A stretch of DNA of 64,000 bases, taken from NCBI GenBank assembly GCA_041481365.1, contig JBGPBS010000001.1, forward strand, positions 13,063 to 77,062, read 5' to 3'. Below the pieces are notes generated by a model that saw only the letters and a program-made list of their open reading frames with translations, searched no databases and was not told the DNA's origin. Positions 16,971-57,400 of the stretch are shown here, piece by piece (position 1 is the first letter of the stretch; the number at the start of each line of letters is the position of its first letter). A program made the translations under genes and the position numbers. The stretch is from Candidatus Bathyarchaeia archaeon. GTDB taxonomy: Archaea; Thermoproteota; Bathyarchaeia; Bathyarchaeales; Bathycorpusculaceae.

Positions 16971-18410
16971 TTAGCGTGACTTTCGGCCTCGGTTTCTTTT
17001 GCGTCTTGTTGGCTTATGGGTGTTTGCTCTTTTCCCGAGGATGGACTCGTTGCTGAAGATTCGCTGTGCCTGTTCGGGATCTAGAATTCTCTTTTCGAGC
17101 GCTATTTCTCTTACCGACTTTTTTTCTTTGATCGATTGACTTGCGATTTTGCTCGCAGCCAGATACCCAATGGTCGGTGAGAGGAAGACTGCCAATGAAG
17201 GATTCTTTTCAAGGTTTGCTTCACATTTCTTCTCATCGGCAGTGATTCCCTGAACGCATTTCTTGGTGAAGACAGGTAAGAAACTGGCCAGAATTTGGAT
17301 CGACTGCAGAATGTTATGCATAATCACGGGCGTCATGACGTTCAATTCGAGTTGTCCAGCTTGGACTGCTAGAGAAAGCGCCAAGTCGTTGCCGACGATC
17401 TGGAAGGCAATCATGTTAAGACACTCAGCCATCACAGGATTGGTCTTTCCTGGCATGATGGAAGAGCCCGGTTGCACCGAGGGCAGTTCGATTTCGGCCA
17501 GACCGGTCGTCGGACCAGACGAGAGCATCCTCAAATCGTTGGCTATTCTGATTAACTCCAGTGCTAACTCTTTGATGCCTCCTGAGACTGCGGCGATGCC
17601 GTTTCGGCTTTGGAGCGCTTCAAAAGGGTTACGGGCCGCCCACAGTGGAAAGCCGGTCATTTTGCTCAGCACCTTGATGGCGATGTCCTTGAATTTCGGG
17701 TCAGTGTTGACACCTGTTCCAACCGCGCTTCCCCCGAGGGCCACTTCTCTGAGGCGAAGGCTTCTTTCTTCGATTTGGTCCCTCGTGTTCATCACGGAGA
17801 CCGCATATGCACCGAACTCTTGACCCAGGGTTACTGGCAAAGCATCTCTCAGATGGGTTCGCCCAGATTTCATGACGCCGGAGAACTTTTTTCCAAGATC
17901 CTCGAAGGCCTTGGCCAGTCTGTCAAGTTCAGTCAATAACGGTGCCAAGGCCATCAGAGCAGCGACATGAAGAGCGGTTGGAAAAGTGTCATTCGATGAT
18001 TGCGCCATGTTGACATGATCATTTGGGCTAACGCATGCGTAGTCTCCTTTGGCTCGACCCAAGATTTCGAGAGCCCGGTTTGCAAGCACCTCATTCACGT
18101 TCATGTTGAAAGACGTACCAGCTCCAGCTTGAAAAACGTCAACGACAAATTGTTCCACCAGCCTGCCCTTCATAACCTCGTTACAAGCTTCAACGATCGC
18201 TCTGCCCACTTTCGCATCCAATCGCCCAACTCGCATGTTCGCGATGGCTGCCGCCTTCTTCACCAAAACATAAGCCTTGATGAAGACAGCAGGCGCCTTC
18301 TCGCCGCTGACTGGAAAGTTGCCAACAGCTCGCACCGTCTGAACACCAAAGTAAGCATCTTTAGGAACAAGTTTCCGACCAAGAGAATCAAATTCTGTCC
18401 GCATTTCCAT
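16971..18410 (-). CDS. Aspartate ammonia-lyase / class II fumarase family lyase
   Basis: Signature GSSIMPGKTNP. The N-terminus DAYFGVQTVRAVGNFPVSG is closer to AspA than FumC. Unusual basic C-terminal tail KPTRRKRNRGRKSR. Confidence 0.85.
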   Translation of the reverse strand: MEMRTEFDSLGRKLVPKDAYFGVQTVRAVGNFPVSGEKAPAVFIKAYVLVKKAAAIANMRVGRLDAKVGRAIVEACNEVMKGRLVEQFVVDVFQAGAGTSFNMNVNEVLANRALEILGRAKGDYACVSPNDHVNMAQSSNDTFPTALHVAALMALAPLLTELDRLAKAFEDLGKKFSGVMKSGRTHLRDALPVTLGQEFGAYAVSVMNTRDQIEERSLRLREVALGGSAVGTGVNTDPKFKDIAIKVLSKMTGFPLWAARNPFEALQSRNGIAAVSGGIKELALELIRIANDLRMLSSGPTTGLAEIELPSVQPGSSIMPGKTNPVMAECLNMIAFQIVGNDLALSLAVQAGQLELNVMTPVIMHNILQSIQILASFLPVFTKKCVQGITADEKKCEANLEKNPSLAVFLSPTIGYLAASKIASQSIKEKKSVREIALEKRILDPEQAQRIFSNESILGKRANTHKPTRRKRNRGRKSR

Positions 18411-23799: not shown

Positions 23800-25254
23800 T
23801 TACCGTTGGATTGTTTTGATCAGCTGCCTCTTGCTGTCGAATATGTTTACTGTGAGGGGCATCTGTCCGACTGCATAGTGTGTGGCACATCCGAAGCAAG
23901 GGTCGTAGGCTCTGAAGGCCATTTCAACCATGTTGAGCACGCCTTGGTCCACTCTGCCACCGTGGATCACGCCTTTGGCCGCATCGCGGATTGACATGCA
24001 GATCGCGGGATAATTGTTAGTCGTTGCCACTATCAGGTTGACGTCTTTCACGAGCGCGTCCTTGTCTAGCACGTAGTGGTGGAACAATGTTCCTCTAGCA
24101 GCTTCGACGACTCCTACGCCTTCGCTGGGGTCGCCTGGCTTGTTCCTCACGTTTGTGCTCGTTATCTCTGGGTCCCTGCTGAGCTCAAGCCCCTTTTCCG
24201 CAGCGTACAGCAGCTCGATCAGTCGTGCCCAGTGGAAAGCCAACGTGCCATGCACAGGTTTGCCGCCAAGGGTCTTGTACATCTGTTCATACTCTGCTTG
24301 GGCAAGCGGCGTGGTCATGCCGTCTGAAGCGTTGAGCCTTGCAAGTGGGCCAACGCGATAGACTCCGCTGTCCATCCCGTAGACTTGGCCTTTCCATCCG
24401 ACCTTCTTCAGGTACGGGAACTTTGCATAGGTCCATTCTTCCACGTGTTCGCCGACGTAGTTCAGATAGTCCTTGGGTTCAAACTTCAGGAACTCCTTGC
24501 CGTTAGGGTCGACGACTCTGATTTGGCCATCGTAGAAGTTTACCTTGTTGTTCTCGTCAACCAAGCCCATGTAATACGTCTTCATCGTATAGGCTTCGCT
24601 CTTGATCATGTCCACATATTTGCTATTGCCCAAAACGATGCTGTGGAACAGCTTCAACGTGAGCTTCGCAAACTCCACCGAAGAGGCGGTCATCCTCTCG
24701 ATTTCCTTCCTATTATCTTCGCTCAGCGCCTTGGATATTCCCCCAGGCAGCCCACATACTGGATGCGTTGCTTTTCCGCCCAGAATCTCCGTTATCTTCT
24801 GCCCATATGCCCTGTGCTTGATGACTTCTTTGGCGACGTCCATGCCTGCTTTTTCGATGACACCGAGGATGTTTCTTTTCTGAGGCGGCGCATCTGGCCC
24901 GACTATGAAGTCTGGACCGCCGAGAAAGTAGAAGTGCAGAATGTGATCGTAGATGATGTATCCTGCATACATGAGTTCTCTGAGCTTCTTTGCAGCTGAT
25001 GGCGGTTCAACGCTGAAGGCCGCGTCCAACGCTTTTACTGCTGCGAAATGGTGTGCCACTGGGCAGACGCCGCATATTCTCGTGGTCAGTATGGGCATCA
25101 GTTCAGCTCTGCGTCCAATGCAGAACTTTTCGAAGCCCCTGAGTTCCGGAATCTTCAGATACGCATTTTCAACTTCGCCCGCGTCGTTCAAGAATATTGA
25201 AATGTTCCCGTGGCCTTCAAGCCTGCTAATCGGGTCTATGATTACTTCTTTCAT
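23800..25254 (-). CDS. mvhA: F420-non-reducing (Mvh-type) [NiFe] hydrogenase large subunit
   Basis: N-terminal RLEGHG and RICGVCPVAH. C-terminal DPCFGCATH, followed by a 25-aa extension of the kind removed by the maturation protease. Confidence 0.9.
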   Translation of the reverse strand: MKEVIIDPISRLEGHGNISIFLNDAGEVENAYLKIPELRGFEKFCIGRRAELMPILTTRICGVCPVAHHFAAVKALDAAFSVEPPSAAKKLRELMYAGYIIYDHILHFYFLGGPDFIVGPDAPPQKRNILGVIEKAGMDVAKEVIKHRAYGQKITEILGGKATHPVCGLPGGISKALSEDNRKEIERMTASSVEFAKLTLKLFHSIVLGNSKYVDMIKSEAYTMKTYYMGLVDENNKVNFYDGQIRVVDPNGKEFLKFEPKDYLNYVGEHVEEWTYAKFPYLKKVGWKGQVYGMDSGVYRVGPLARLNASDGMTTPLAQAEYEQMYKTLGGKPVHGTLAFHWARLIELLYAAEKGLELSRDPEITSTNVRNKPGDPSEGVGVVEAARGTLFHHYVLDKDALVKDVNLIVATTNNYPAICMSIRDAAKGVIHGGRVDQGVLNMVEMAFRAYDPCFGCATHYAVGQMPLTVNIFDSKRQLIKTIQR

Positions 25255-26252
25255 TCCTTCATCACCTTTCTTCTAAGAAGCGACGATGGCAAAGAGTACA
25301 TGTAGAACGTGCCCACAGGGTCTTTAATCTGGCTCATGAGCTTCTCAACATCCTCTTCAGTGTAATGATCCTGCTCAGTCTCCAAGCCTAATATCGAAGC
25401 TATAGCGCTCATCATTGCTGCACCTTGCTCCGGCGAGTTTGGGCATGGACCGCCGCATCCCGTGCATGGCATGTCAACGGTCAAGCATTGGGCGCCGCAT
25501 CCGCTTCGAGTGGCTGGCCCCATGCAGATGATTCCCTGTTCGAGCAGGCATCTTTCGGGTTCAGGAACTTTCTCGTGAACGCGGTATATCTTCGAGATTT
25601 TTTTGTTTTCCTTCTTCCTTGGACACTCGTCGCAGACGGATTTTAGGGGTGCAAGAACTGAGCCTTTTGCTGGAAGCTCGTTCTTTCTTATGGCGTCAAT
25701 GGTGTTCAATATCAGCTTGACTGGCGGTGGACAGCCTGGCAGGTAATAGTCAACTTTGACGGTTTGATCCAAAGTCTTGACCGTGTCGTAAAATTCTGGG
25801 AGCTTCAGGACTCCCTCTTTTACTACAGTCTTGGTCTGCGGGATGACTCCTTCAGCGTTTGAAACGGACTTGCTCTCAAGATAAACCTTGCTGAAGATCT
25901 CTTTGCGGTCATGAAGATTCGCTAGGCCGGGTATGCATCCTTCTTGCGCGCATGACCCGAAGGCCACGAGTGTCTTTGCCTTCTTCCTCAGAAGCTTGGC
26001 CATATGTTCTTGTTCTTCGCTCCTCACGGACCCGTTGAAAAAACATACGTCGATGTAGTTGTCAGGCATGTTTTCCACGTCCTTGTATTTGACGTCCATC
26101 GCCACGGGCCAGAACACTATGTCCGCAATGTTCACTACATCCAAGATCTTCTCGTTGATATCCAACACTGCGATCTCGCATCCACCGCAGCTTGCAGCCC
26201 AATAGAAGGCTAACTTCAGCTTCTCTTTCGGCATCTTACTTCTCTCCATCAC
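25251..26252 (-). CDS. mvhG: Mvh-type [NiFe] hydrogenase small subunit
   Basis: AASCGGCEIAVLD, GSCAQEGCIPG and C-terminal Cys clusters. ATGA-type overlap with mvhA. Start ambiguous (GTG 26252, ATG 26249 or ATG 26234). Confidence 0.88.
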   Translation of the reverse strand: MMERSKMPKEKLKLAFYWAASCGGCEIAVLDINEKILDVVNIADIVFWPVAMDVKYKDVENMPDNYIDVCFFNGSVRSEEQEHMAKLLRKKAKTLVAFGSCAQEGCIPGLANLHDRKEIFSKVYLESKSVSNAEGVIPQTKTVVKEGVLKLPEFYDTVKTLDQTVKVDYYLPGCPPPVKLILNTIDAIRKNELPAKGSVLAPLKSVCDECPRKKENKKISKIYRVHEKVPEPERCLLEQGIICMGPATRSGCGAQCLTVDMPCTGCGGPCPNSPEQGAAMMSAIASILGLETEQDHYTEEDVEKLMSQIKDPVGTFYMYSLPSSLLRRKVMKE

Positions 26253-27150
26253 AAACTTTGCCCAGCATTTTTGAAACGTCCACCCTGAGCTCGTTAAACG
26301 CCAACTCTCCAGGCTTCATGCCCATTGCCAAACCGAGTAGCTGTGGATAATGCAATATTGGAATGCCGTAAACCTCGTTAAACATCTTCTCAATTCGCAG
26401 CTCATTCGTGTCATACATTATGTGACAGAACGGGCAAATCGTAATCATGGCCTCTGCATCAACCGTTTTGAGGTGACTAAGCTTGTCCCTGGCAAGCTGC
26501 AGGGCAACCTTGTCGCTCACACCTACGCTCGGGGCGCCACAGCATTCAGTCTCATCCATGTAGTCTAAGCATGTCGCACCAGTGGCTTCAATCAGCGTCT
26601 TAAGTGTCTTAGGATCCTCAGGATCGTCAAATCCGATGAATTCTTTGGGCCTCAGAATGTGGCATCCATTGTGTTCAGCAACTTTGAGCATAGTAAGCGG
26701 CTTGGACACCGAGTTCTTGATCCTCTTCAACCCGACATCCTCGATCAACACTTGCATAAAATGCTTCGCATCAGAAGTTCCCTTAAACTCCAAACCGGCA
26801 TCCTTCAAGTGGCCGTTTATGTCATCACGCAAATCCTTGTCTTCCTTGAGCATCTTGTTGACTTTCTTCAAAGTTCCCGCGCAACCAGGACACAAGGTGA
26901 CAATCTTTAGGCCTTCACGTTCGGCCAAGGCCAAGTTTCTAGCAGCAAGTATGAGCATCATTTCATGACTAACCGGATCCAACGGCAGACCGCAGCAGTT
27001 GAATTCGCGCATCTCCTGCAGCTCCACGCCTAACCTGCCCAAGACCTTACGTGCCGAAATCTCAAAGGCGCTAACACGGTAAGGAATCGCACAGCCTAGA
27101 AAGATGAGATACTTTGAATCCGCCAATTCACTCACCCTTCTTTCCCACAT
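26236..27150 (-). CDS. hdrB: Heterodisulfide reductase subunit B (two CCG domains)
   Basis: FNCCGLPLD and TECCGAPS CCG motifs; 304 aa. Confidence 0.9.
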   Translation of the reverse strand: MWERRVSELADSKYLIFLGCAIPYRVSAFEISARKVLGRLGVELQEMREFNCCGLPLDPVSHEMMLILAARNLALAEREGLKIVTLCPGCAGTLKKVNKMLKEDKDLRDDINGHLKDAGLEFKGTSDAKHFMQVLIEDVGLKRIKNSVSKPLTMLKVAEHNGCHILRPKEFIGFDDPEDPKTLKTLIEATGATCLDYMDETECCGAPSVGVSDKVALQLARDKLSHLKTVDAEAMITICPFCHIMYDTNELRIEKMFNEVYGIPILHYPQLLGLAMGMKPGELAFNELRVDVSKMLGKVCDGEK

Positions 27151-27652
27151 ATTTCATAAAGTGCACGTTCAGAAGCGTCTTGCCTATGCTGTCTGGGTTT
27201 CCCTTCGGCAGCGGAGGCAACCCTAACTGTTCCCTCTTTCTCATTCTCAACTCTGGAATCTTGTACGCGTATCCTGACTCAAGAATGCTTGACGCCTGCT
27301 CCTTGAAGACCTGTGGCACGCAGCCCTGCTCTGCAGCCAAGTTTCTCAAGACACGTATGACACTTGCTACCTCAACGTCTTGTGGGCAGCGATCCGTACA
27401 TGTGAAACATGCCGCGCAGAGCCACAGTGTGTCGCTCTTCAACACTCTGTCTTTGAGGCCGAGCTGAGCCATGCGAATAATCTGTCTGGGCCTGTAGGTG
27501 TCGCTGAACCTTGCAACAGGACAGTCAGACGTGCAAGTCCCACACTGGAAGCAGCGCATCAGCTTCTCGCCGCCGCGCATCTTTGAAATATCATATTTGA
27601 ACTTCGGATCCATCTCCGAAGCCTTGATCATTTTCTTCTCCGACTGTTCCAT
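27128..27652 (-). CDS. hdrC: Heterodisulfide reductase subunit C (2x[4Fe-4S])
   Basis: CFQCGTCTSDCP and CAACFTCTDRCP. Confidence 0.9.
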   Translation of the reverse strand: MEQSEKKMIKASEMDPKFKYDISKMRGGEKLMRCFQCGTCTSDCPVARFSDTYRPRQIIRMAQLGLKDRVLKSDTLWLCAACFTCTDRCPQDVEVASVIRVLRNLAAEQGCVPQVFKEQASSILESGYAYKIPELRMRKREQLGLPPLPKGNPDSIGKTLLNVHFMKYVGKKGE

Positions 27653-28089
27653 TAGGCTTCAACCTCCTTGCCTCCAAGCGGGTTCGGCCCGAGCTTCTTT
27701 ATGTCATCAACCATGTCGCGCACCACCGCGGCAAACTTGTCCCCTTCACTCGCCGAAATCCACTCCAACCGCAAACGTTCAGGCTCTATCCCGAAATCCT
27801 TCAAAACTTCCCTCAACAACGTAATCCTCCGCAACGCCTTGAAGTTCCCACTAATGTAATGGCAGTCCGAAGGCAAGTGACAACCAGCAACAAGCACGCC
27901 GTCCGCGCCATCCTTGAAAGCCTCAAGGATAAAGGCCGGATCGATTCTGCCGCTGCACATGACACGGATGATCCTAATGTTCGGAGGATATTGTATTCTG
28001 CTGACGCCGGCCAAGTCTGCACCAGCATAGCTACACCAGTTACATAAGAAACCGATGATCTTCGGCTCAAACCCATTCTTTTCACTCAT
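27652..28089 (-). CDS. mvhD: Methyl-viologen-reducing hydrogenase delta subunit
   Basis: IGFLCNWCSYAGADLAGVSRIQYPPNIRIIRVMCSGRIDP. TAATG overlap with hdrC and ATGA overlap with hdrA. Confidence 0.9.
   Translation of the reverse strand: MSEKNGFEPKIIGFLCNWCSYAGADLAGVSRIQYPPNIRIIRVMCSGRIDPAFILEAFKDGADGVLVAGCHLPSDCHYISGNFKALRRITLLREVLKDFGIEPERLRLEWISASEGDKFAAVVRDMVDDIKKLGPNPLGGKEVEA
27986..28072. repeat. 87-nt segment perfectly identical to 31792-31878 (5-prime coding region of mvhD copy 1)
   Basis: Base-by-base comparison of both loci. Identity begins at GGATATTGTATTCTG and ends at CGGCTCAAAC. The flanks diverge immediately. Confidence 0.9.
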
Positions 28090-31000
28090 GCTGTAGCCTC
28101 CGTTAATGCGGCTTCAACCTGGGCAAGTATCTCCTGCGTCGTAAAGTGTCCCATCGTGATAGCCTTCGTCGGGCATGCTGTGCCACAGGCGCCGCAGCCC
28201 TTGCACAAGGCCTCAATCACGTGTGCGATCGGCTTACCCTCTTTCTCTTTCAATTCGACTGCACCGTAAGGACACAGATATTCACAGATTCTGCAACCGC
28301 TACATAAATCTTCAGATACGTTTGCTACGATTCCTTCCATCTCGAGCTTGTCTTTCGAGAGAATCGTCGTCGCCCTTGCAGCGGCCGCACAAGCCTGCGA
28401 TATGCTCTCGTCAATGTACTTTGGCGAATGCGCCATTCCGCAGAGAAAAACGCCTTCTGTCGCAAAGTCCACGGGCCTAAGCTTCATGTGTGCCTCCAAG
28501 AAGGAACCTTCTTTGGTCAAAGGCACTTTGAGCATTCCAGCCAAGTGCTTGTTGTCAGGGTTTGGAATAGTTGCCGCACTCAAGACGACGGTGTCCGGCT
28601 CAACCTCAACCTCTTGACCTAGAACAGGCTCCCAGAAGATCACCGCCAGCCTTCCTTCCTCGTTCAAGACTTGCGGTTTCCTCTCATCATCATAGTTTAT
28701 GAACAGGACCCCTTTCATGGCGGCTTCTCGGTAATAATCCTCCTTGAAACCATAGGCACGCATATCCTTGTACAAGACGTAGACTTCAGTCTCTGGGCTT
28801 ACTTCTTTGATCTTCAACGCGTTCTTTATCGCTTGGCCACAGCAGATTCTCGCGCAGTTCGGTCTTTCCTCGTTCCTCGCGCCGACGCATTGTATCATGA
28901 GAACACTTTTGGCCTTGAAAGCGCCTTTCGAGAGTTTCTCTTCAAGCTCATGCTGAGTCACTATTCTCTGATCTGTGCCATAGAGGTATTCCTTAGGCGT
29001 GTACTCGGTAGCGCCTGTAGCTACTATGACTATGCCATGCTCGATTTCCTTCTCTTTGCCGTCGTGCTGCTTGATCTTCGTCTTGAAGTTGCCTACAAAA
29101 CCGTAGATATCGGTGACCTCTGCACTAGTGTAGACGTGTATCTTGCTGTTGCCCATAACTTCCTCAGCTAGAGCATCAAGCTTCTCCTTCGGGTTTGTGT
29201 TCTCCCCCAGCAGATAGTGAATCGTGCGGAGATGCCCGCCTAGCTCCTTTTCTCTTTCGACCAGATGAACCTCGAATCCCTGCCTCGCAAGCTCCAAAGC
29301 GGAGGTCATGCCGGACACTCCTCCGCCGATGACGAGGCCGATTGGCGTGACGTTTATCAAGGGCTTCTCCAACGGCTTCAAGAGCTTGGCCTTCGCAACT
29401 ATTGAGCGCACTAGGTCTTTGGCTTTCTTAGTGGCTGATTTCGGGTCATGCATGTGAACCCAGCTGCACTGATCTCGAATGTTCGTCATCTCGAACAGGT
29501 ACGGGTTCAACCCTGCTTCCTGCACCGTCTCCTTAAACAGGGGCTCATGCGTACGAGGAGTGCACGAAGCTACGATCACGCGGTTAAGGTTGTTCTGCTT
29601 TATCTTCTCCGCTATGAGTTTTTGAGTGTCCTGAGAACAGGTGTAAACGTTCGCCTCAGCATAGGCCACGTTGGGCAGGGTCCGGGCATACCGCACTACT
29701 TCCGGAACGTTGACCACGCCGCCGATGTTTATGCCGCAGTGACAGACGAACACGCCTATGCGCGGCTCTTCCTTGCTGACATCCCGTACGGGCGGGTACT
29801 CCTTCTTCTTAACCAGTTTTCCTCTTTCGCTCGCAACGATGCCCATGGCCTTTGACGCTGCCCCGCTTGCCTGAGCAACGCTCTCAGGGATATCCTTCGG
29901 CGCGGAGAAGGCCCCGCAGACGAATATGCCAAGCTTCGAAGTCTCAACCGGCGAGAACGTCTCCGTGTCACAGAACCTGTACTTGTTAAGTTTTATGCCC
30001 AAGTTCTTGGCAAGCTTCTCAGCGTCCTTTGGAGCCGTCATTCCAATCGACAGGACAACCATGTCGAACTCTTCTTCTTTGGGCGTCTCGTTCTCAACGT
30101 AATGAACGAACAGGTTCCCCGTTTTCGGATCTTCGGTCACTCCTGCGACTCTCGATCTCACAAAACGGATGCCCCACTCTCCTTGGGCACGCTCATAGTA
30201 TGAGTCAAATTCCTTCCCGTAAGAACGCATGTCCATGTAGAAAATGGTGGGGTCTAACTTCGAAGGCGTGTGCTCCTTAGCTATCACTGCCTCTTTCATG
30301 CCGTACATGCAGCATGCAGCTGAGCAATAATTGTTCCCAAGCTGATAGTCACGTGAACCAACACAGAAGACAAAAGCGATCTTCTTGGGAATCTCACCGT
30401 CCGACGGCCTTAGAACAAGTCCGCCATACGGTCCAGAAGCGCTCAGGATACGTTCAAACTCGATACTCGTCACAACGTTCGGATATCGACCGTAACCGTA
30501 CTCGCTCTTTAACCGCGCGTCGAAAGTTTCGAAGCCGAGAGCAAGAATGATCGAGCCAACTTTCAGCTTCCCTTCAGTCTCCTCTTGCTCATACTGAACG
30601 GCGTTTGCTTTGCAGATTTCAGCACATGTTCCACAACCGATGCATCTTTCACGGTCGATCATATACTTCAGCGGCACGGCTTGCGGGTACTCAACATAGA
30701 TCGCACCCCTATTGCCGAGACCCATATTGAACGTGTCGACCGCTTCGATCGGACATTTCTGTGCGCAAAGGCCGCAGCCGTTGCATTTGTCTTCGATTAT
30801 GTAACGAGGCTTCCTTCGAAGTTTTACTTCGAAGTTTCCAGCTTCACCGTTCAAGCCCGTGATTTCCGCGTTCGTCAAAATCGTGATGTTCGGATGCCTT
30901 CCCGTCGCCACGAGCTTGGGCGAAAGAATGCACATTGAACAATCGTTTGTTGGGAACGTCTTATCCAGCTGCGCCATCACGCCGCCTATGCATGGGCCCT

Positions 31001-31109
31001 GTTCGACCAGGTAGACCTTGAACCCAGAATCAGCTAAGTCAAGAGACGCCTGTATCCCTGCTACTCCTCCGCCCACTACCATGACTGCTCCAACTTTGGC
31101 ATCCGCCAT
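28086..31109 (-). CDS. hdrA: Double-length fused HdrA-like flavoprotein (two tandem HdrA-type FAD modules)
   Basis: 1007 aa. Module 1: GGGVAGIQASLDLA, MAQLDKTFPTNDCSMCIL, inserted ferredoxin CNGCGLCAQKCP/CIGCGTCAEIC, CVGSRD. Module 2: VFVCHCGINIGG N-domain, GGGVSGMTSALELA, IQCVGARNE..CARICC, C-terminal CSGCRICEYLCP/CKGCGACGTACP. Confidence 0.9.
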   Translation of the reverse strand: MADAKVGAVMVVGGGVAGIQASLDLADSGFKVYLVEQGPCIGGVMAQLDKTFPTNDCSMCILSPKLVATGRHPNITILTNAEITGLNGEAGNFEVKLRRKPRYIIEDKCNGCGLCAQKCPIEAVDTFNMGLGNRGAIYVEYPQAVPLKYMIDRERCIGCGTCAEICKANAVQYEQEETEGKLKVGSIILALGFETFDARLKSEYGYGRYPNVVTSIEFERILSASGPYGGLVLRPSDGEIPKKIAFVFCVGSRDYQLGNNYCSAACCMYGMKEAVIAKEHTPSKLDPTIFYMDMRSYGKEFDSYYERAQGEWGIRFVRSRVAGVTEDPKTGNLFVHYVENETPKEEEFDMVVLSIGMTAPKDAEKLAKNLGIKLNKYRFCDTETFSPVETSKLGIFVCGAFSAPKDIPESVAQASGAASKAMGIVASERGKLVKKKEYPPVRDVSKEEPRIGVFVCHCGINIGGVVNVPEVVRYARTLPNVAYAEANVYTCSQDTQKLIAEKIKQNNLNRVIVASCTPRTHEPLFKETVQEAGLNPYLFEMTNIRDQCSWVHMHDPKSATKKAKDLVRSIVAKAKLLKPLEKPLINVTPIGLVIGGGVSGMTSALELARQGFEVHLVEREKELGGHLRTIHYLLGENTNPKEKLDALAEEVMGNSKIHVYTSAEVTDIYGFVGNFKTKIKQHDGKEKEIEHGIVIVATGATEYTPKEYLYGTDQRIVTQHELEEKLSKGAFKAKSVLMIQCVGARNEERPNCARICCGQAIKNALKIKEVSPETEVYVLYKDMRAYGFKEDYYREAAMKGVLFINYDDERKPQVLNEEGRLAVIFWEPVLGQEVEVEPDTVVLSAATIPNPDNKHLAGMLKVPLTKEGSFLEAHMKLRPVDFATEGVFLCGMAHSPKYIDESISQACAAAARATTILSKDKLEMEGIVANVSEDLCSGCRICEYLCPYGAVELKEKEGKPIAHVIEALCKGCGACGTACPTKAITMGHFTTQEILAQVEAALTEATA

Positions 31110-31895
31110 CTAGGCCACCTCCAAAGCTCTATAGAGCGGGGTCGTACCCTCAATATGGTCCACTGTTATCATGTTCCTTCTCCGCATGTTCACGATCTGC
31201 TTGAGAACGGCCGCTGGCTCCAAGCAAGTTGCCTCGGACAAGGCCTTGATTGAAAGAGGCTCAGTTTGTGTCAATAGATGAATCTTCTGCCGAAAGAACT
31301 CGGCTTCAACAACCTCGTCGAGCAACGAATCAAACTCTTCTTGCGAGACTTTCTCATCGTACACGTTGTTTTTCTCTGTCAACTCTCTTTCCCTTCCGAC
31401 CAGAACTCTCAGCCTGAAATCTGAAGCAGCATTCCTTGCTGCTTCAAGGTTTTCAAGAACCTTCTGATCAGGCACTTTACCTGATGCGGGTGAGGGACCA
31501 AGCTTCTTTATCTGATCTGTGAATTCGGTCACTATTTGAGCAAACCTTTGACCCTCAGACGCTGAAACCCAGTCGAGTCTCAAGCGGTCTGGTCCTAAGC
31601 CCGTTAACGCTAGCAGCTTCTTCAGCATCTTGATCTTCCTTTCCTCGTACAGGTTTCCCTCGACATAGTGGCAATCAGCAGGGTGACATCCCAGGACAAT
31701 CACGCCATCTGCTCCGCGCATGAAAACCTCTAGGGGAATAATCGGGTCGATTCTTCCACTGCACATAACCCGGACAACCCTGATGTTTGAGGGATATTGT
31801 ATTCTGCTGACGCCGGCCAAGTCTGCACCAGCATAGCTACACCAGTTACATAAGAAACCGATGATCTTCGGCTCAAACGATTTCTTCTCACTCAT
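31110..31895 (-). CDS. mvhD: MvhD-domain protein with a ~120-aa C-terminal extension
   Basis: The N-terminal 140 aa are paralogous to 27652-28089 (IIGFLCNWCSYAGADLAGVSRIQYPSNIRVVRVMCSGRIDP). The extension ends in a helix-turn-helix-like LSIKALSEATCLEPAAVLKQIVNMRRRNMITVDHIEG. Confidence 0.88.
   Translation of the reverse strand: MSEKKSFEPKIIGFLCNWCSYAGADLAGVSRIQYPSNIRVVRVMCSGRIDPIIPLEVFMRGADGVIVLGCHPADCHYVEGNLYEERKIKMLKKLLALTGLGPDRLRLDWVSASEGQRFAQIVTEFTDQIKKLGPSPASGKVPDQKVLENLEAARNAASDFRLRVLVGRERELTEKNNVYDEKVSQEEFDSLLDEVVEAEFFRQKIHLLTQTEPLSIKALSEATCLEPAAVLKQIVNMRRRNMITVDHIEGTTPLYRALEVA
31792..31878. repeat. 87-nt segment perfectly identical to 27986-28072 (5-prime coding region of mvhD copy 2)
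   Basis: See the partner repeat at 27986-28072. Confidence 0.9.
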
Positions 31896-31896
31896 T

Positions 31897-33597
31897 TCAG
31901 TCGCCTCCCAAGGCTGCAGTAGCCTCTGCTAAGACCTGCTTGTCGCTGAAATGCCTCATCGTTATGGCCTTTTCTGGACAACTTGCAGCGCAGACGCCGC
32001 ATCCTTTGCAGAGAACGTCGTTGACTCTTGCTACTCCACGCTCATCCTTTTGGATAGCATTATAAGGGCAAAGTTTGACGCAGGTTCCGCAGCCCGTGCA
32101 CAGGACTTCATCGACTACGGAGGTTATGGCTTCCGTCCGCACTCGTTTCAGAGCCATGGGGATGCCTGCCCTTGAGGCAGCAGCATATGCCTGCGCGATG
32201 CTTTCAGGAATGGTCTTCGGGCTGTGAGCCGTTCCGCAGACGAATATTCCGTCCGTCGCGAAATCAACTGGCCTAAGTTTGACGTGAGCCTCAAAGAAGA
32301 AGCCGTCAGCTCCGATTGGAACCTTAAGCACCTTTGAAAGCTCTTTTGCGTCTCCAGTTTGAACCAGCGGAGTTGACAGAACGACGAGGTCAGCGTCAAG
32401 TTCAAGATTGTCATTAACTAGAATATCGCGCACTCTTACGGTGCATTTTCCATTCGACTCAACGGCAACTTCTGGAGGATCCTCCGCATCAAACCTTATG
32501 AATTGAACAAAGCTCTCTCTGGCCTTTTGATAGCAATCTTCGAAATCCTTGCCGTACGTCTGCATGTCCCTGTAGAGTATCGACACCTCAGCGTCTGGAT
32601 ACAGCTTTTTGATTTCCAGGGCATTCTTGACCGCGGTGGCACAGCATATTCTTGAACAATAGTTACGGCCGCCTTCTTTCCCTTCTCTTGCACCGACGCA
32701 TTGGATCATGACGACGTTCTTTGGATTCTTCAGCTTGCCCTCCTTCATGAGCCGCTCAAGCTCAAACTGAGTGACAACGTTCTTGCACTCGCCGTAACAG
32801 TACATTCCGCTGGGCTCGAAGACTTCCGCCCCCGTGGCCACGATTATCGTTCCAACGTCAAGCGCCTCATCCTTCCCTTCCTGATCCAGCGTAACCTTGA
32901 AGTTTCCTATGAAACCCTCAACGTTCTTAACCGTCGATAGAATGTGCAAGGTGATGCTCGGATTTGACTTCACGGCTTGAACAAACTCCTCCACTATTTC
33001 CGATGACTGCATGTCAGTCGGATAGAGCTTACAAAGCTCATTCAGCTTGCCTCCAAGCGCTTCTTTCTTTTCAACAAGGTGAACCGAAAAACCCTGATGC
33101 GCAAGGCTGACCGCCGCACTCATTCCTGAGATGCCACCGCCTATAACAAGGGCTGATGGTTGAACTTCGATCTCCGGCTCTGTCTGAGGCTCAAGCAGAG
33201 CAGCCTTGGCGACCGCCATTCTAACAATCTCTTTGGCTTTCTCTGTTGCCTCAGCCGGCTCCTTCGCGTGGACCCAGCTGCAGTGCTCTCGGATGTTGGC
33301 CATATGGAACAGATACTTGTTCAAACCTGCCTCTTCACAGGCACCTCTGAAAAGCGGCTCGTGAGTCCTGGGTGTACAAGAGGCCACGACCACTTGAGTA
33401 AGACCGTATTTCTTAATGGCCTCTTTGATCTTGCTTAATCCTTCTGACGAACAAGTGTAAAGGTTACCTTCAGCATACGCAACGTTGGGCAACGACTTCG
33501 CGTATTTAACAACTTCTGGAACGTTAACCACAGAGCCTATGTTGACCCCACAGTGGCAGACGAAAACGCCCACCTTAGGCTGTTTGTTCTCGCTCAT
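31897..33597 (-). CDS. hdrA: HdrA-like flavoprotein, C-terminal half of a split double HdrA
   Basis: Starts MSENKQPKVGVFVCHCGVNIG at an ATG that overlaps the upstream stop (ATGA). Collinear with residues ~445-1007 of the fused HdrA. GGGISGMSAAVSLA, IQCVGAREG..YCSRICC, CTGCGTCVKLCP/CKGCGVCAASCP. The ORF track extends it to 33708. Confidence 0.88.
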   Translation of the reverse strand: MSENKQPKVGVFVCHCGVNIGSVVNVPEVVKYAKSLPNVAYAEGNLYTCSSEGLSKIKEAIKKYGLTQVVVASCTPRTHEPLFRGACEEAGLNKYLFHMANIREHCSWVHAKEPAEATEKAKEIVRMAVAKAALLEPQTEPEIEVQPSALVIGGGISGMSAAVSLAHQGFSVHLVEKKEALGGKLNELCKLYPTDMQSSEIVEEFVQAVKSNPSITLHILSTVKNVEGFIGNFKVTLDQEGKDEALDVGTIIVATGAEVFEPSGMYCYGECKNVVTQFELERLMKEGKLKNPKNVVMIQCVGAREGKEGGRNYCSRICCATAVKNALEIKKLYPDAEVSILYRDMQTYGKDFEDCYQKARESFVQFIRFDAEDPPEVAVESNGKCTVRVRDILVNDNLELDADLVVLSTPLVQTGDAKELSKVLKVPIGADGFFFEAHVKLRPVDFATDGIFVCGTAHSPKTIPESIAQAYAAASRAGIPMALKRVRTEAITSVVDEVLCTGCGTCVKLCPYNAIQKDERGVARVNDVLCKGCGVCAASCPEKAITMRHFSDKQVLAEATAALGGD

Positions 33598-34913
33598 CTC
33601 TTGGCCTCCTTTGAAAGGCAGGCTATGGTCTCCGCTGCTCTTGCGGCCGCCCCGCTTGCCTGAGCAACGCTTTCTGGAATGTCCTTTGGGCTTTGGCAGT
33701 AACCGCAAATGTATATTCCAGCGACGTTTGTGTCAACTGGAGCTGTGAGCTGATTCTTGGACTTGAAGAATCCATACTCGTCAAGCTCTACGCCGGTCGC
33801 CTCGGCGATTTTCTTGTTGTCTACTTTTGGAATCAACGCTGGGCACAACACAACCATGTCAGCATCAAGCTTCTTCATGTTACAGCCTGCCTTGATGTCC
33901 TCATAATAGATTTGAAGACTCCTCGTTTTTGGATCTTCAGCGATTCCCCCGGGATGTGCCTTAATGTAATTCACGCTGTACTGGCTTTTTGCCCTGTCGA
34001 CGAATTCTTGAAAGCCTTTACCGACTGCTCTCATGTCCATGTACATGATGTAGACTTCAGTGTCGGGCATATGGTCTTTTGCCAAGATTGACTCCTTAGT
34101 CGCGTAGACACAGCACACGCTTGAGCAGTAGGGCAGTTCGCCCCGTTGGCTCCTCGAACCCACGCATTGAACGAAAACCAGGCTTTTGGGCTCTTTCCCG
34201 TCAGAAGGTCTAAGAAGGTGACCATCCGTGGGTCCAGACGCGCATATCAGCCTCTCAAATTCCATCGAAGTAATCACGTTCTTGAACCGTCCATAGCCGT
34301 ACTCCTTCATCGCTGAAGTATCGAAAGCGTCGAAGCCCGTCGCAAGAATTATCGAGGAGACGTTCAACACCTTTTCCTTCGGCTTTTGTTCATAATCTAT
34401 AGCAGCTGAGGGGCAGATTTTCTGGCATACTTTGCAGACGCCCTTCGTGAAGTATAGGCAGGTGTTTGGATCAATGGTGGCCACAAGGGGCACTGCCTGC
34501 TTGAAGGGCATGTATATGGCTTTTCTGTTTCCCAACCCCATGTCGAACTCATTTGGTGCCTTGACGGGACATTTCTCCATGCAGGTGCCACAGCCAGTGC
34601 ATTTGTCAGCGGTCACGTACCTTGGTTTCTGTAAGACTTTGACCTTGAAGTCACCCTTATCACCGCGAACCTCCTTTACCTCTGAGTAAGTCAACATCGT
34701 AATGTTCGGATGTCTGAAGCATTCAATCATCTTCGGCGCCAGTATGCAGATTGAACAGTCAAGCGTTGGGAAAGTCTTGTCGAGCTGTGCCATCCGACCG
34801 CCTATGCTGGGTGTCTTTTCGACGAGGTAGACTTTGGTTCCGCGGTTAGCCAAGTCGAGGGACGCTTGTATTCCAGCTATGCCTCCGCCGATTATCAGAA
34901 CCGAGTTTGACAT
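33594..34913 (-). CDS. hdrA: HdrA-like flavoprotein, N-terminal half of a split double HdrA
   Basis: 439 aa, collinear with residues 1-~440 of the fused HdrA. GGGIAGIQASLDLA, MAQLDKTFPTLDCSICIL, inserted ferredoxin CTGCGTCMEKCP, CVGSRSQ..YCSSVCC, PKDIPESVAQASGAA. Confidence 0.88.
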   Translation of the reverse strand: MSNSVLIIGGGIAGIQASLDLANRGTKVYLVEKTPSIGGRMAQLDKTFPTLDCSICILAPKMIECFRHPNITMLTYSEVKEVRGDKGDFKVKVLQKPRYVTADKCTGCGTCMEKCPVKAPNEFDMGLGNRKAIYMPFKQAVPLVATIDPNTCLYFTKGVCKVCQKICPSAAIDYEQKPKEKVLNVSSIILATGFDAFDTSAMKEYGYGRFKNVITSMEFERLICASGPTDGHLLRPSDGKEPKSLVFVQCVGSRSQRGELPYCSSVCCVYATKESILAKDHMPDTEVYIMYMDMRAVGKGFQEFVDRAKSQYSVNYIKAHPGGIAEDPKTRSLQIYYEDIKAGCNMKKLDADMVVLCPALIPKVDNKKIAEATGVELDEYGFFKSKNQLTAPVDTNVAGIYICGYCQSPKDIPESVAQASGAAARAAETIACLSKEAKR

Positions 34914-35051
34914 AGGTTGCGCTCCCTTCCGGTTTCTGGAGTGAATGAGTGAATTGATGAAGGTAAATAATCTTTACGTCTGAGGGAACTGTTTTTGATG
35001 ATGTGTGGGCTGATCATTCGATCTTTGAGCATGAATAGGATTATCCCCCAG

Positions 35052-35067
35052 TATGACACGTGTCATA
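35052..35067. promoter_or_regulatory. Perfect 16-bp palindrome TATGACACGTGTCATA upstream of the hdr/mvh operon
   Basis: Self-complementary as read. About 140 nt upstream of the hdrA start at 34913. Half-sites and spacing match the tandem sites at 54275-54310. Confidence 0.6.
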
Positions 35068-35140
35068 TTGAGCCAAACACTCACTATACCTAATAAGGTT
35101 TCCCATGTGCAAGCAGAAATATCGACGAGCTAATCCGCTA

Positions 35141-52889: not shown

Positions 52890-53834
52890 CTATGGGATCT
52901 TGCTTAGTGTTGCATCGATTGATTGCTCTCGTCCTCTGCGGAAGAGGGTAAGCCGGATTTTGTCGCCTATTTTTCTATTGTGAATCTCGCTTGCGAGGTC
53001 TTCGACACTGTTTATCGGCGCGTTATCCAGTCTGAGTATTACGTCTCCTGCGACTGCTCCGGCACGTTGCGCTGGGCTCCCAGCCACAACTTTGGTGACG
53101 AGAACGCCACTTCCTATGGGGAGGTTGTAGTAACGAGAAATCTCTTCGGTCAGGCTCAAACCTATTATGCCTAGCCAAGGTCTAATAGGTTGTCCACCTT
53201 TAATGGCGTCAGCCATGCATTCTCTTACGGCGTTTATTGGAATGGCAAAGCCTATTCCCTGTGCAAAAGGGATTATCGCCGTGTTTATCGCGATGACCTT
53301 TCCTTCGAGGTCCACGAGGGGGCCTCCACTGTTGCCTGGGTTTATTGCCGCATCGGTCTGAACGAGATTCTCCAACATGCCTCTTTGAGATTCTATAGTT
53401 CTGCTCACGGCGCTAATGACTCCGGAAGTCACAGTTGGACCGCCTGCGAGTCCGAAGGGATTTCCAATTGCGTAGACTCTTTGACCCACTCTCAGCTTAT
53501 CTGAGTTCCCGAGCTCTGCGACCTGCAACTCTGTCCTATCCACTTTAACGACTGCGGTGTCATGAACGGCACAGGAGTTCACCAGTTTTCCTTGTAGCAC
53601 ATCGCCGTTCCACAGCACGACGTCTATCTTCTCTGCGCCGCCGACCACATGATTGTTGGTTAGTATGTAGCCGTTTGGGTCAACTATCGTCCCGGAACCC
53701 ATTCCTTCTACGGGGATTGTTTGGTAGAACATTCTATGGACGAGCTTGACCGTGCTTATGTTGACAACGCCTTTGGTTGCTTTTTCGACGATGTCAAGAA
53801 CGATCTTCTCATCGAAAGAGGACAAGTTTTTCAC
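52890..53834 (-). CDS. htrA: HtrA/DegP-family trypsin-like serine protease with one PDZ domain
   Basis: Triad contexts TNNHVVGG, HDTAVVKV, PGNSGGPLVD. C-terminal PDZ GVLVTKVVAGSPAQRAG. 4-nt overlap with the upstream regulator gene. Confidence 0.9.
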   Translation of the reverse strand: MKNLSSFDEKIVLDIVEKATKGVVNISTVKLVHRMFYQTIPVEGMGSGTIVDPNGYILTNNHVVGGAEKIDVVLWNGDVLQGKLVNSCAVHDTAVVKVDRTELQVAELGNSDKLRVGQRVYAIGNPFGLAGGPTVTSGVISAVSRTIESQRGMLENLVQTDAAINPGNSGGPLVDLEGKVIAINTAIIPFAQGIGFAIPINAVRECMADAIKGGQPIRPWLGIIGLSLTEEISRYYNLPIGSGVLVTKVVAGSPAQRAGAVAGDVILRLDNAPINSVEDLASEIHNRKIGDKIRLTLFRRGREQSIDATLSKIP

Positions 53835-54232
53835 CTTTTGCCAGCGGGTAAATCGTGATCCAGGCAGAATCTACACTGTTGTATTTCAACCTTAGGATCC
53901 ATCTTTCGGCAGAACGGACACATCAGGCTACTTTTCCGCACTAACGCGCAAGTTTGACAGAAATAGGTCAAGAATTCCTGCCCTTGATATTCTCCATCTA
54001 GAAGAAGCGCCGTCATCTTGATTATCAGCGGTCTTATCCCGTCGACGTCGCTGACCTTGATGGCGTGCCCTCTGCTTTTTCTTGTGTATCTGCTGACGGC
54101 TGATTGAGATATGCCTAGGATTTGGGCCACTTCATCCTGTTTCAAACCGTTTTTCTCAACAAGCTGTGTTGCCACTAATGCCTTCACAGCCGGCACCACC
54201 GACTTTACCGCCACCTCGCAGGGTAATATCAA
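53831..54232 (-). CDS. COG2522-type archaeal HTH transcriptional regulator with a Cys-rich C-terminal domain
   Basis: PCEVAVKSVVPAVKALVATQLVEKNGLKQDEVAQILGISQSAVSRYTRKSRG. C-terminal CQTC...CPFC...CRFC. TTG start. Confidence 0.75.
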   Translation of the reverse strand: MILPCEVAVKSVVPAVKALVATQLVEKNGLKQDEVAQILGISQSAVSRYTRKSRGHAIKVSDVDGIRPLIIKMTALLLDGEYQGQEFLTYFCQTCALVRKSSLMCPFCRKMDPKVEIQQCRFCLDHDLPAGKR

Positions 54233-54274
54233 AAGCTCCCACCGTGCATTAGTTGTGGGTTGAAAAGTATATAA

Positions 54275-54310
54275 ATATGACGCATGTCATAAGCATATGA
54301 CGCATGTCAT
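54275..54310. promoter_or_regulatory. Two tandem copies (20-bp period) of ATATGACGCATGTCAT, each an ATGAC-N4-GTCAT inverted repeat, abutting a TATA box
   Basis: Copies at 54275-54290 and 54295-54310. TATATAAA at 54268-54275 lies 36-44 nt upstream of the regulator start at 54232. Confidence 0.65.
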
Positions 54311-54447
54311 GATGAGGACTCAAACAAGTAATTTTGCTGCAATCACATTCCCTTCCCTTTCCCCATTATGACGCGCGCTATGGATGATCACACGTGCAAA
54401 CACAAGGCTACACAAGTCCACTCAATGGGACGATGCAACAGACAAAC

Positions 54448-57400
54448 CTAGCTGACGAGCCTTTGATATTCTGGGTTGATTTTTCCGTATCTTGTCTGAA
54501 CTAGAGAATTGGCTTCCCGCCAGTCGTGCTTAGTTTTTGTCCACAGTTCCGTTTTTGTAAGCTTGTCAACGTAGTTCTTGATTGCTGGTTGCCGCTTGAT
54601 GGTTCCCTTTTGCCAATCAATGGTTATGAGTCCTGCGTGTCGGAGACTGTGCAGACCATGTGCCATTTGATCTGAATCTATTGGGTAGGTTGCGATTCCC
54701 TTGAGGTCGTTGCGCAGCGAATCCATTGAAATCTCGTTCTCCAGCCTCAGACATATAAGAGCTATCGTGGTCTGAAGCGATCTCGCCGTTGGAGTGATGT
54801 ATGCCATCGCCCGCCGCGGAATTGGAATCTGCTCAAGTTTCTGCGCATGGCGCTTGTAGAACAAGCCCTTAACTATCTCGACAAGGACCAGGTAGATGCC
54901 AACAAATGCCACCAAGATGATCATGAAAGTCAATAGGGCAGACTCATGAAAAGGCTGGGCAAACGCGAACAGGCGGCCGATAAACGTGAATGGTAATATC
55001 AGTGCGAACGCAACGACACCTAGACTGCTAATGATCAGGGGCAGGCTTGGCCTGCTCTTGAAGAAAGGTCTCATTCTCGTTCTTATGACGAATATCACTA
55101 AAGTCTGCGTGCTTAATGATTCGATGAACCATGCAGTCTGGAATACTGCCGCTGTGGCGTGAAAAACATACAGCATCACGAAGAATGTCAAGAAGTCAAA
55201 TATCGAGCTTATCGGGCCAAAGTACAGCATGAAGCTTCTCACGAAAGACATGTCCAACCTTTTGGGTCTTTCAATATACTCTTCATCAACGTTGTCCGTC
55301 GGAATCGTCAGTTCAGACAAGTCATACAGAAGGTTGTTCAGAAGTATCTGTGTGGCAGTCATGGGGAAGAAATCTTTCAAAAATACAGATGCTCCCGCGG
55401 CACTGAACATGTTCCCAAAGTTGGAACTCACGCCCATCATGATGTATTTCATGGTGTTGCCGAAAGTTTTTCTGCCTTCAAGAACCCCTTCTTCAAGCAC
55501 TCTCAAATCCTTATGCAAGAGTATGATGTCCGCTGATTCTTTGGCAACATCCACGGCGTTCTCCACTGATATGCTAACGTCAGCCACTCTCATCGAAGGC
55601 GCATCGTTGATGCCGTCGCCGAGGAAACCGACAACGTGACCATTTCCTTTCAACGCGGTAATTATCCGGTCCTTCTGGGCAGGGTTGACTCTTGCAAATA
55701 TGTTAGATTGTTCAACAACCCTTGCCAGTGCATCGTCGCCCATCCTGGCGATGTCGCTTCCAAGAACTACGCCTTTTATTTCGAAGCCCAGTTCGTCGCA
55801 GACCTTTCGCGTCACGAACTCATTGTCTCCCGTGAGAATTTTCAGTTCGATTCGATTCTTCTTGAACAGCTGCAGAGATTCTTTTGCACTTTCCTTGGGC
55901 GGGTCCATGAAGGCAACGAATCCCAAGAACACCATGTCACTTTCGTCGTTGACAGAGTACACCGTCTTGTCTTCTTTGACTTTCTTGTATGCTATGCCAA
56001 GAACTCGGAATCCCTCAGAGCTCAAGTCGTAATATTTCTGCTCGATTTTTCCCTGCGTTTCACTTGACAGGTCAAATACTCTTCCAGAAAGTTCATAGTA
56101 CGAACAGGCTCTGGCAATCTCTTCTGGGGCTCCCTTGGTGATAAAGAATCTTTCACCAAGATGCTGAGTCACAACAGAAACTCGCCGTCTGACAAAGTCG
56201 AATGGAACTTCGTCTATTTTCTCGTAATCGGTAACATCAATTTTCCTGTATGAGAGTATGGCCTCATCAAGCGGACTGCTCAGGCCTGTCTGGAAATGGC
56301 TATTTAAGAAGGAGTGCAACAGGACTTTGTCATCGTCTTTCCCTTCCATATCTACGTGCAGCATAAGCGTGACTTTGTTCTCTGTCAACGTACCAGTCTT
56401 ATCGGTGCACAGAACATCCATGTTGCCGAAATTCTGAATCGACGCCAACTGCTTGACTATGACACCTTTCTTCGACATTGCGAGGGCGCCCTTTGAAAGA
56501 TTCACGGTCAGGATCATCGGCAAAAGCTCAGGCGTCAGACCCACAGCCAATGAAACAGAGAAAAGCAGAGAATCGACTACTGCACGACCCTTCAGAGCAT
56601 TTATGAAAAAGACGGAAATTACGAGGAGGAAGGTCACCTGCATGATCATGTAGCCGAATCGTCTTAGTCCCCTTTCAAATTCGGTTTCAGGTCTCCTCTC
56701 AACAATCCTCTTAACGATCTTACCATACTCAGTGTTGCCGCCGGTCTTCACAACTGCCGCCGTGGCTGAACCGCTCACCACCGACGTGCCCATGAAAAGA
56801 TAGTTGTGCCATTCAGTGATCGTGGGAACGCATTCAGGCGTCACGGCCAATGCTGTTTTCTCAACTGGAAATGATTCTCCCGTCAGGGCTGATTGATCCA
56901 CGAAGAAATCTTTGTTGCCTATCAGCCTAGAATCGGCGGGCACTATGTCCCCTGCTGAAAGACTCACTATATCACCTGGGACAATTTCTGAGAGTTTGAT
57001 CTCGGTTTTTCTCCCTTCTCGGATCACTGTCACCTTGGTTGCAACTCTTTCTCTCAGTTCTTCAGCTGCCCTTTCAGCCTTGGATTCTTGGAAGAAAGTG
57101 AGGATCACACTTAGCAGGACTATCACAAAAATGATCGTTGAATCTGGCAGGTCTCCAGTCACGCCAGCTATCAGTCCGGCGAAAAGAAGTATTATTACGA
57201 GCGGGTTCCTGAAATTGAAGAGAAACTTGACTATGGCTGTCCTTTTCTTCTGTTTCGCCACTTCGTTAGGACCGTATACTTCAAGCAACTTTGCAGGCTG
57301 TTCCAATGAAAGCCCCGACTGAGAGCTGCCGAGCCTGGCAAGAACTTCATCTATTGGCGTGCACAGGATCTCTTCATTCTCCAGAAAATGTGCCCCATCC

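Follow-up and report, generated by a model that had tools for sequence, protein, structure and literature searches.

A conserved dyad predicted to place the hdr/mvh operon of Bathyarchaeia under an autoregulated, cysteine-rich DNA-binding protein

We analysed a 64,000-nucleotide (nt) stretch of DNA from a Candidatus Bathyarchaeia archaeon (contig JBGPBS010000001.1, positions 13,063 to 77,062; hereafter the window), which carries an hdr/mvh operon and, at a distance from it, a gene for a 133-amino-acid (aa) helix-turn-helix (HTH) regulator. A short palindrome stands upstream of the operon and recurs twice upstream of the regulator gene. The two groups of genes and sites are laid out as follows.

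23800..34913, minus strand: hdr/mvh operon, the predicted regulated target (Pfam; gene order is the same in orthologous loci).
35052..35067, no strand assigned: predicted operator O-hdr (palindrome, weight-matrix score and conservation in orthologous leaders).
53831..54232, minus strand: gene of the 133-aa regulator (Pfam HTH_3, alignments and AlphaFold2 model).
52890..53834, minus strand: htrA, encoding a trypsin-like protease with a PDZ domain (Pfam); it overlaps the regulator gene by 4 nt.
54268..54275, minus strand: TATA box TTTATATA of the regulator-htrA promoter (from sequence; a TATA octamer is found here in 80/80 orthologues).
54276..54291, minus strand: predicted proximal autoregulatory operator O1, sense strand ATGACATGCGTCAT, 1 nt before the TATA box.
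54296..54311, minus strand: predicted distal autoregulatory operator O2, 20 bp upstream of O1 from start to start, that is, two helical turns.

The site at 35052-35067 is, as the initial annotation of this DNA had described it, a perfect 16-bp palindrome, TATGACACGTGTCATA (TATGAC-ACGT-GTCATA), upstream of the hdr/mvh operon. The two regulator-side copies, TATGACGCATGTCATA at 54276-54291 and TATGACGCATGTCATG at 54296-54311, were said to share its half-sites, spacing and flanking T/A; half-sites and spacing are indeed the same, but the second copy is flanked by T/G. Exactly three matches to the motif ATGAC-N4-GTCAT are present in the window, where 0.03 would be expected from dinucleotide-preserving shuffles, and three or more matches were found in 0 of 100 such shuffles, in agreement with the earlier view that three copies are unlikely by chance. 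Scored with a weight matrix derived from related sites, the three reach 22-25 bits (22.4 for O-hdr, 25.0 for O1 and 23.8 for O2), and the next-best site in the window, at 10.8 bits, is inside the range of shuffled sequence. A search of the window allowing up to two mismatches gave no excess (34 found versus 28 expected). Because of this lack of excess and the gap in matrix scores, we take the window to contain three real sites and no more; one-mismatch sites at 17323, 51301 and 58357 were discarded, as their weight-matrix scores were at or below chance.

A scan for regulator orthologues, with one genome per species, returned 80 Bathyarchaeia loci (38-82% identity); homology likewise places the organism of the window in the Bathyarchaeia. 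All 80 loci have the dyad 55-85 nt ahead of the start codon, exactly in 76 and with one mismatch in the others, and in every one the gap between the proximal copy and a TATA octamer is exactly 1 nt. Two copies are present in 62 loci, with a spacing of 20 bp in 29, 21 bp in 26, 22 bp in 4 and 19 bp in 3; 19-22 bp corresponds to about two helical turns. The site has an asymmetric centre, usually ATAC, and its orientation relative to the regulator gene is constant. In the window, O1 occupies the position of the B recognition element (BRE) of the regulator promoter, and a GGTG-type Shine-Dalgarno sequence and a TTG start codon follow the TATA box at the usual distances. The htrA gene adjoins or follows the regulator gene in 38-39 of the 80 loci, and the two are probably co-transcribed.

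The same promoter has left a trace in gene calls. Some family members have false N-termini of the form MTYVI...FIYFS (P0060, P0074, P0082, P0093 and P0117), and open reading frames (ORFs) of this kind are also found in L016, L032 and L039; these are the translated operator and TATA box, since the calls were extended to, or begun at, an ATG inside the operator. Such N-terminal extensions and spurious ORFs of the regulator are an annotation artefact in public databases.

On the operon side, Pfam identifies the genes as hdrA-N, an hdrA-like gene, mvhD, hdrA (1007 aa), mvhD, hdrC, hdrB, mvhG and mvhA. The 227-nt gap reported upstream of hdrA-N is there (34914-35140), and the gene preceding the operon, at 35141-37942, encodes an ADP-forming acetyl-CoA synthetase fused to a GNAT domain (ACS-GNAT). 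A metagenome scan with HdrA-N gave 80 loci, 32 of which are orthologues with a conserved leader and enough upstream sequence. Conservation of the site upstream of hdr/mvh orthologues had been proposed as a check, and 28 of the 32 leaders keep the dyad, at -141 to -162 (24 exact and 4 with one mismatch). In an alignment of 24 leaders the island TATG.C....GTC is invariant amid diverged flanks (columns T79, A80, T81, G82, C84, G89, T90 and C91). The dyad is also retained with hdr where the ACS-GNAT gene is missing or displaced (L086, L104, L107, L108, L111 and L114) and therefore belongs to hdr rather than to the preceding gene. The contig Ga0315279_10000112 carries both the regulator and its sites (L162) and the hdr site (L081), about 20 kb apart as in the window.

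The other computational check that had been proposed, enrichment in promoters versus coding sequence, also came out in favour of the proposal. Across the window and 1.955 Mb of related loci we found 163 exact dyads against 1.6-2.1 expected, of which 155 are at the two anchor promoter positions (regulator and hdr). The remaining eight comprise six intergenic sites, one over the called start of a divergent gene beside the regulator promoter and a single site inside coding sequence, which has an atypical centre.

The position of the hdr dyad was examined relative to two further elements of the leader.

35089..35104, minus strand: predicted distal promoter P1 (BRE/TATA) GGGAAACCTTATTAGG, a conserved block of the leader alignment with consensus GAGAAGATTTATTAGG.
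34963..34979, minus strand: invariant 17-nt element ACGTAAAGATTATTTAC, about 50-66 nt before the hdrA-N ATG (leader alignment).

P1 consists of a purine-rich block followed by a TATA-like box and is upstream of the dyad. In the window its TATA box starts 31 nt upstream of ATGAC; of 27 non-redundant leaders examined, 26 could be measured, and 24 of these have the TATA start 27-33 nt (mode 31) ahead of the A of ATGAC. Archaeal TATA boxes are centred near -26/-27 from the transcription start. From this rule and the 27-33-nt spacing, transcription from P1 is predicted to start on the first bases of the operator; the assignment of P1 as a promoter likewise follows standard archaeal promoter geometry. 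A dyad on the P1 start would occupy a classical repressor position. The ACGTAAAGATTATTTAC element, 73-86 nt downstream of the dyad, is invariant in the 24 aligned leaders, putative third codon positions included, is unique in the window and surpasses the nearby TATA box in conservation. Possible readings are a proximal promoter P2 (BRE/TATA), a site for another factor, or the two overlapping. A conserved (A/T)CATTAAAAYC block is found about 20 nt upstream of it.

Beyond the two anchors, the weight matrix predicts as targets the gene of a 71-86-aa single-cluster ferredoxin (L013, L016, L017 and L034) and a NifU-like gene (L039); at both kinds of gene the operator is between the TATA box and the start codon. 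We also noted operators in divergent intergenic regions (L011 at 7677, L017 at 2907, L013 at 1309, L034 at 5074 and L026 at 4751), with a 71-aa ferredoxin on one side and, on the other, a transporter of the Mem_trans family or a CopB-like P1B ATPase with a His-rich N-terminus and a C-terminal YHS domain. There the module of an operator 1 nt from a TATA box is reused, facing the other way with respect to the ferredoxin gene.

The regulator protein matches Pfam HTH_3 (PF01381) at residues 24-52 with 27.4 bits, above the cut-off of 23; only this HTH was recognisable in Pfam, NCBIfam and PDB sequence searches. It contains three CxxC pairs, spaced CxxC-x9-CxxC-x11-CxxC, and an N-terminal Cys. Among 104 family members, Cys is found at position 5 in 83%, at 92 in 84%, at 95 in 89%, at 105 in 96%, at 120 in 99% and at 123 in 98%; position 108, a Cys in the window protein (C108), is His in 63% and Cys in 32%. 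Conserved ligands with such a Cys/His interchange are what is expected of a metal- or iron-sulfur (Fe-S)-dependent regulator. The initial annotation had suggested that the CxxC tail could sense redox state or metal; owing to the interchange at position 108 these residues look more like metal ligands than a disulfide redox switch. The four best-conserved positions, 105, 108, 120 and 123, would form a zinc-knuckle-like site, and we speculate that C5, C92 and C95 make up a second, possibly sensory, site.

An AlphaFold2 model built from 104 diverse sequences is all-alpha, with eight helices (predicted local distance difference test (pLDDT) score 91.6, predicted TM-score (pTM) 0.85). It replaced a first model from 32 close sequences, which had a pLDDT of 67.5 and gave an uninformative Foldseek result. 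With the final model, the best Foldseek TM-score on the query was 0.33, and there was no match at E < 0.001 among the 50 best listed; 37 residues of the HTH superpose on DeoR/SorC-type HTHs with a root-mean-square deviation of 1.2-1.3 Å. As modelled, the all-alpha C-terminal domain appears to have no solved structural relative, the resemblance being confined to the HTH. A profile search collected 1711 cluster representatives, of which 499 have E < 1e-10; Hydrothermarchaeota and Aenigmarchaeota are among the members. Cluster look-ups for a family name returned generic names only, no characterised member was found in the structure, family or paper resources searched, and literature searches for the motif strings and for COG2522, to which the initial annotation had assigned the regulator, gave nothing relevant; the one paper mentioning COG2522 is about small proteins from ocean metagenomes.

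Protein and dyad were compared across the family. In the 32 Bathyarchaeia orthologues aligned, recognition-helix residues G40, S42, Q43, S44, A45, V46, S47 and Y49 are invariant, and so are the half-sites. Of five distant family members examined, four (25-40% identity, with altered helices) carry a related dyad immediately before their own gene: ATGAC-N3-GTCAT in L169, ATAAC-N3-GTTAT in L166 and L167, and TTAAC-N3-GTTAA in L168. By a rough estimate, a 160-nt upstream region would contain such a dyad by chance with a probability of about 0.02. Dyads that drift before the genes of distant relatives fit recognition by a diverging family of its own promoters, not by an unrelated factor, and suggest family-wide autoregulation with drifting specificity. 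With a promoter-overlapping dyad in its own promoter in 80/80 loci, the regulator has the arrangement of an autoregulated repressor; at the targets, too, the operator overlaps the BRE/TATA or the transcription start, these promoters being predicted.

Taken together, the comparative tests support the proposal that the regulator controls the hdr/mvh operon as well as itself and htrA. The dyad is very probably the operator of the 133-aa protein. The explanation that we consider best, and probable as a whole, is that of an autoregulated, metal- or Fe-S-sensing repressor acting on its own operon and on hdr/mvh; as to its parts, repression is somewhat favoured on the strength of the predicted promoter geometry, and we name metal, Fe-S or redox status as the sensed signal only tentatively.

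According to this model, a dimer of the regulator would bind each TATGAC-N4-GTCATA dyad. Binding to the pair of dyads in its own promoter, which are two helical turns apart, would be cooperative, and the proximal dyad would cover the BRE position beside the TATA box, thereby controlling synthesis of the regulator and of the co-transcribed HtrA. At hdr/mvh, a dimer on the P1 start would block recruitment of RNA polymerase or act as a roadblock. Related genomes would use this operator also at the small ferredoxin and NifU-like genes and at a divergent TrmB-like gene. The C-terminal domain would combine a structural zinc site with a second metal or Fe-S site, through which metal, Fe-S or redox status would switch DNA binding.

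Several observations weigh against this explanation. Four of the 32 orthologous hdr leaders are without the dyad, as are distant HdrA-N homologues (62-67% identity) in other gene contexts. The argument from autoregulation is the only one that assigns the operator to the protein. The regulon was sampled within 6-10 kb on each side of the two anchor genes and is for this reason incomplete and biased. At the regulator's own promoter, an operator in place of the BRE also fits activation through recruitment of TFB. Finally, the ACGTAAAGATTATTTAC element, TATA-like and the more conserved, could be the real hdr promoter; the dyad would then be in an activator-like upstream position or control a leader transcript only. 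This element is the main uncertainty over how the dyad acts on hdr.

The two last points bear on the alternative that the regulator is an activator or has a dual function, recruiting TFB/TBP in place of a BRE at its own promoter and activating hdr/mvh from about 85 nt upstream. The fixed 1-nt gap that puts the operator at the BRE position in all 80 loci would suit such recruitment, and the 3′ half of the operator, CGTCAT, is not purine-rich, unlike the BRE of P1; moreover, the BRE/TATA-like element at 34963-34979 is at the usual distance from the start codon, and the dyad would be at about -110 from the start that it sets. However, the regulator promoter has a consensus TATA box, TTTATATA, and should need no activator. 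The arrangement at other promoters is also of the repressor type, with a conserved BRE/TATA 27-33 nt upstream of the hdr dyad and, at the ferredoxin and NifU-like promoters, a dyad between TATA box and start codon. We consider activation unlikely.

It is distinctly improbable that the hdr dyad and its TATA box drive a separate short transcript (a leader RNA, small RNA or small ORF) while the operon is transcribed from the proximal element. The leader does contain two tandem promoter-like blocks, and in most orthologues one frame is open across it (about 35032-34898, minus strand, in the window), with a conserved (K/R)RKDYL stretch. This frame is nevertheless probably not a gene: its start and stop are not conserved, it is fused in frame with hdrA-N in L102 and L103, and its third codon positions are invariant as well, which points to constraint on the (K/R)RKDYL stretch at the DNA or RNA level. 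No terminator was found in the leader, an Rfam scan of it gave nothing significant, and a transcript starting at the dyad would still run into hdrA-N.

A further alternative involves the neighbourhood of the regulator promoter. In 17 loci an inverted third site, YTGACGTATGTCATG, is present at about -150 to -190 and adjoins a divergent gene for a 320-350-aa TrmB/HTH_45-like regulator (intact in L001, L012, L016, L039, L058, L161 and L162); the majority of the 80 regulator loci showed no third site. The corresponding part of the window contains two features.

54368..54381, plus strand: degenerate third operator ATGACGCGCGCTAT, with 2 mismatches and 8.5 bits, at the position of YTGACGTATGTCATG in other lineages.
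54394..54456, plus strand: candidate relic of the first ~20 codons of a TrmB/HTH_45-like gene (tblastn, weak evidence).

The relic shows 52% identity over 21 residues (tblastn, E = 0.008), a weak match, in the expected position and orientation; it probably represents a divergent TrmB/HTH_45-like gene lost here, apparently by deletion between the regulator promoter and the end of a P-type ATPase gene. Another factor, such as the TrmB-like regulator or an unlinked protein, might bind the dyad, with the 133-aa gene a mere target, and the divergent gene beside the sites in those 17 loci would speak for it. Yet the sites are perfectly kept in the window, which has a TrmB-like relic only, and in the majority of loci lacking a detected third site; the dyad tracks the 133-aa gene in 80/80 genomes, and the related, shifted dyads of distant relatives stand upstream of that same family. 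We regard binding by another factor as very unlikely.

As explanations of the three sites, coincidence, an RNA hairpin or terminator belonging to the upstream gene, and a restriction-modification target are all of negligible probability. The palindrome can form a 6-bp hairpin and its GACN4GTC core matches a PshAI-type recognition sequence, but only 0.03 sites were expected by chance, the hairpin is unremarkable (-10.2 kcal/mol, z = -1.44) with arms that are invariant and not covarying, the site persists without the upstream gene, the core is not depleted or enriched to speak of (12 found versus 14.7 expected), and none of these possibilities explains class-wide positional conservation beside TATA boxes.

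We compared the predicted autoregulated repressor with known systems. SurR of Pyrococcus and Thermococcus is a redox-switched hydrogenase regulator with an ArsR-type winged HTH and an N-terminal CxxC disulfide switch; it recognizes the dyad GTTn3AAC and controls hydrogenase and electron-transfer genes and its own gene. The protein studied here resembles it as an archaeal CxxC-containing DNA-binding protein with a short dyad, hydrogenase genes as targets and autoregulation (the last two predicted here), but has an Xre-like HTH, an all-alpha C-terminal domain and seven Cys/His positions resembling metal ligands, and its operator is unrelated. CopR is an archaeal metalloregulator with an Lrp/AsnC-type HTH and a TRASH domain. 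The N-terminal HTH followed by a Cys-rich putative metal sensor is similar, as is an operator beside a CopB-like P1B ATPase gene in two related loci, whereas the type of HTH and the Cys spacing differ; neither the regulator nor five distant family members gave a Pfam match to TRASH or YHS at E ≤ 0.01. MsvR of methanogens is redox-sensitive and autoregulated, with an ArsR-like winged HTH, a V4R domain and oxidative-stress targets. Like the regulator here it is linked to operators over its own BRE/TATA, and its cysteines modulate DNA binding, but family and motif are different and its targets are oxidative-stress genes, not hdr/mvh.

EnfR (TON_1525; PDB 8HNP), of the Tfx family, is an HTH repressor of a carbon monoxide dehydrogenase (CODH)-hydrogenase cluster in Thermococcus, with a pseudo-palindromic 36-bp operator and an 'eighth-note' fold whose 'note-head' C-terminal domain is alpha+beta; no cysteine or zinc is mentioned for it (PMC10570040). 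The likeness is that of an archaeal HTH repressor with a pseudo-palindrome at the promoter of a hydrogen-metabolism cluster, and EnfR was the only archaeal regulator matched in the PDB sequence search, at E = 0.047 and over the HTH only. Membership in its family was rejected, with scores of 12.5 bits versus 60.25 for tfx (TIGR00721) and 13.5 versus 260 for EnfR (NF053597), and so was a shared fold: our model is all-alpha, and neither 8hnp nor 8hno was listed within the 50 best Foldseek matches, all of them non-significant. MqsA-type antitoxins, which have an N-terminal CxxC zinc domain ahead of the HTH, share an Xre HTH, CxxC pairs and autoregulation through a palindrome; however, the MqsA family score (TIGR03830) is 18.7 bits versus 61.8 and the domain order is reversed, and the regulator here has no toxin partner and an archaeal genomic context. 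The regulator family and its operator are new, the mechanism itself being of a known kind.

In peat and anoxic sediments, few archaea are as abundant as the Bathyarchaeia, and the Hdr/Mvh complex is central to proposals for their energy conservation (hydrogen-dependent electron bifurcation and an acetogenesis-like metabolism). To our knowledge, almost none has been cultivated, and the searches made turned up no paper on a characterised Bathyarchaeia transcription factor. If true, the circuit would be the first predicted for the control of energy-metabolism genes in these uncultivated archaea. The operator-regulator pair offers a testable handle on when hdr/mvh genes are expressed, the DNA motif can be used for regulon prediction in hundreds of metagenome-assembled genomes, and the small protein is suited to recombinant binding, metal-content and structural work. 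It also draws attention to an archaeal protein family of considerable size, whose fold is unsolved and which probably has a metal-sensing site. A bolder and rather doubtful reading is that it is the founding example of a widespread archaeal transcription-factor family (Bathyarchaeia, Hydrothermarchaeota and Aenigmarchaeota are represented) whose Cys/His site senses Fe-S or redox status, a master switch for Hdr/Mvh, ferredoxin and Fe-S assembly.

Some further observations concern related loci. A Hydrothermarchaeota family member (L163, 2249-6279) is 1.3 kb upstream of an hdrA-mvhD fusion gene and a polyferredoxin-like gene; no clear related dyad was seen in its upstream region. Judging by gene neighbourhood, the association of the regulator family with Hdr may extend beyond Bathyarchaeia. 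In a close relative (L161/L162, 12755-20384) the regulator neighbourhood is rich in redox and Fe-S genes, encoding a VIT1-like transporter, a flavodoxin-like protein, a ferredoxin-thioredoxin reductase/rubredoxin, a glutaredoxin, a disulfide oxidoreductase, TusA, a cysteine desulfurase and NifU_N; no operator was found at any of them within that interval. Two distant loci (L049, 2540-2620, and L064, 80-160) share a promoter-like module, CTTAA(G/A)T-ATGACATGTGTCAT-AGTYTATCYCTCG, downstream of which no conserved ORF or Rfam RNA was found.

Within the window, a terminator-like hairpin with a T-rich tract (35125-35149, minus strand) comes right after the ACS-GNAT stop codon, upstream of P1. The ORF list gives 439 aa and 603 aa for the first two HdrA-like ORFs, with a 115-nt overlap at 33594-33708; their split into two genes recurs in orthologous loci.

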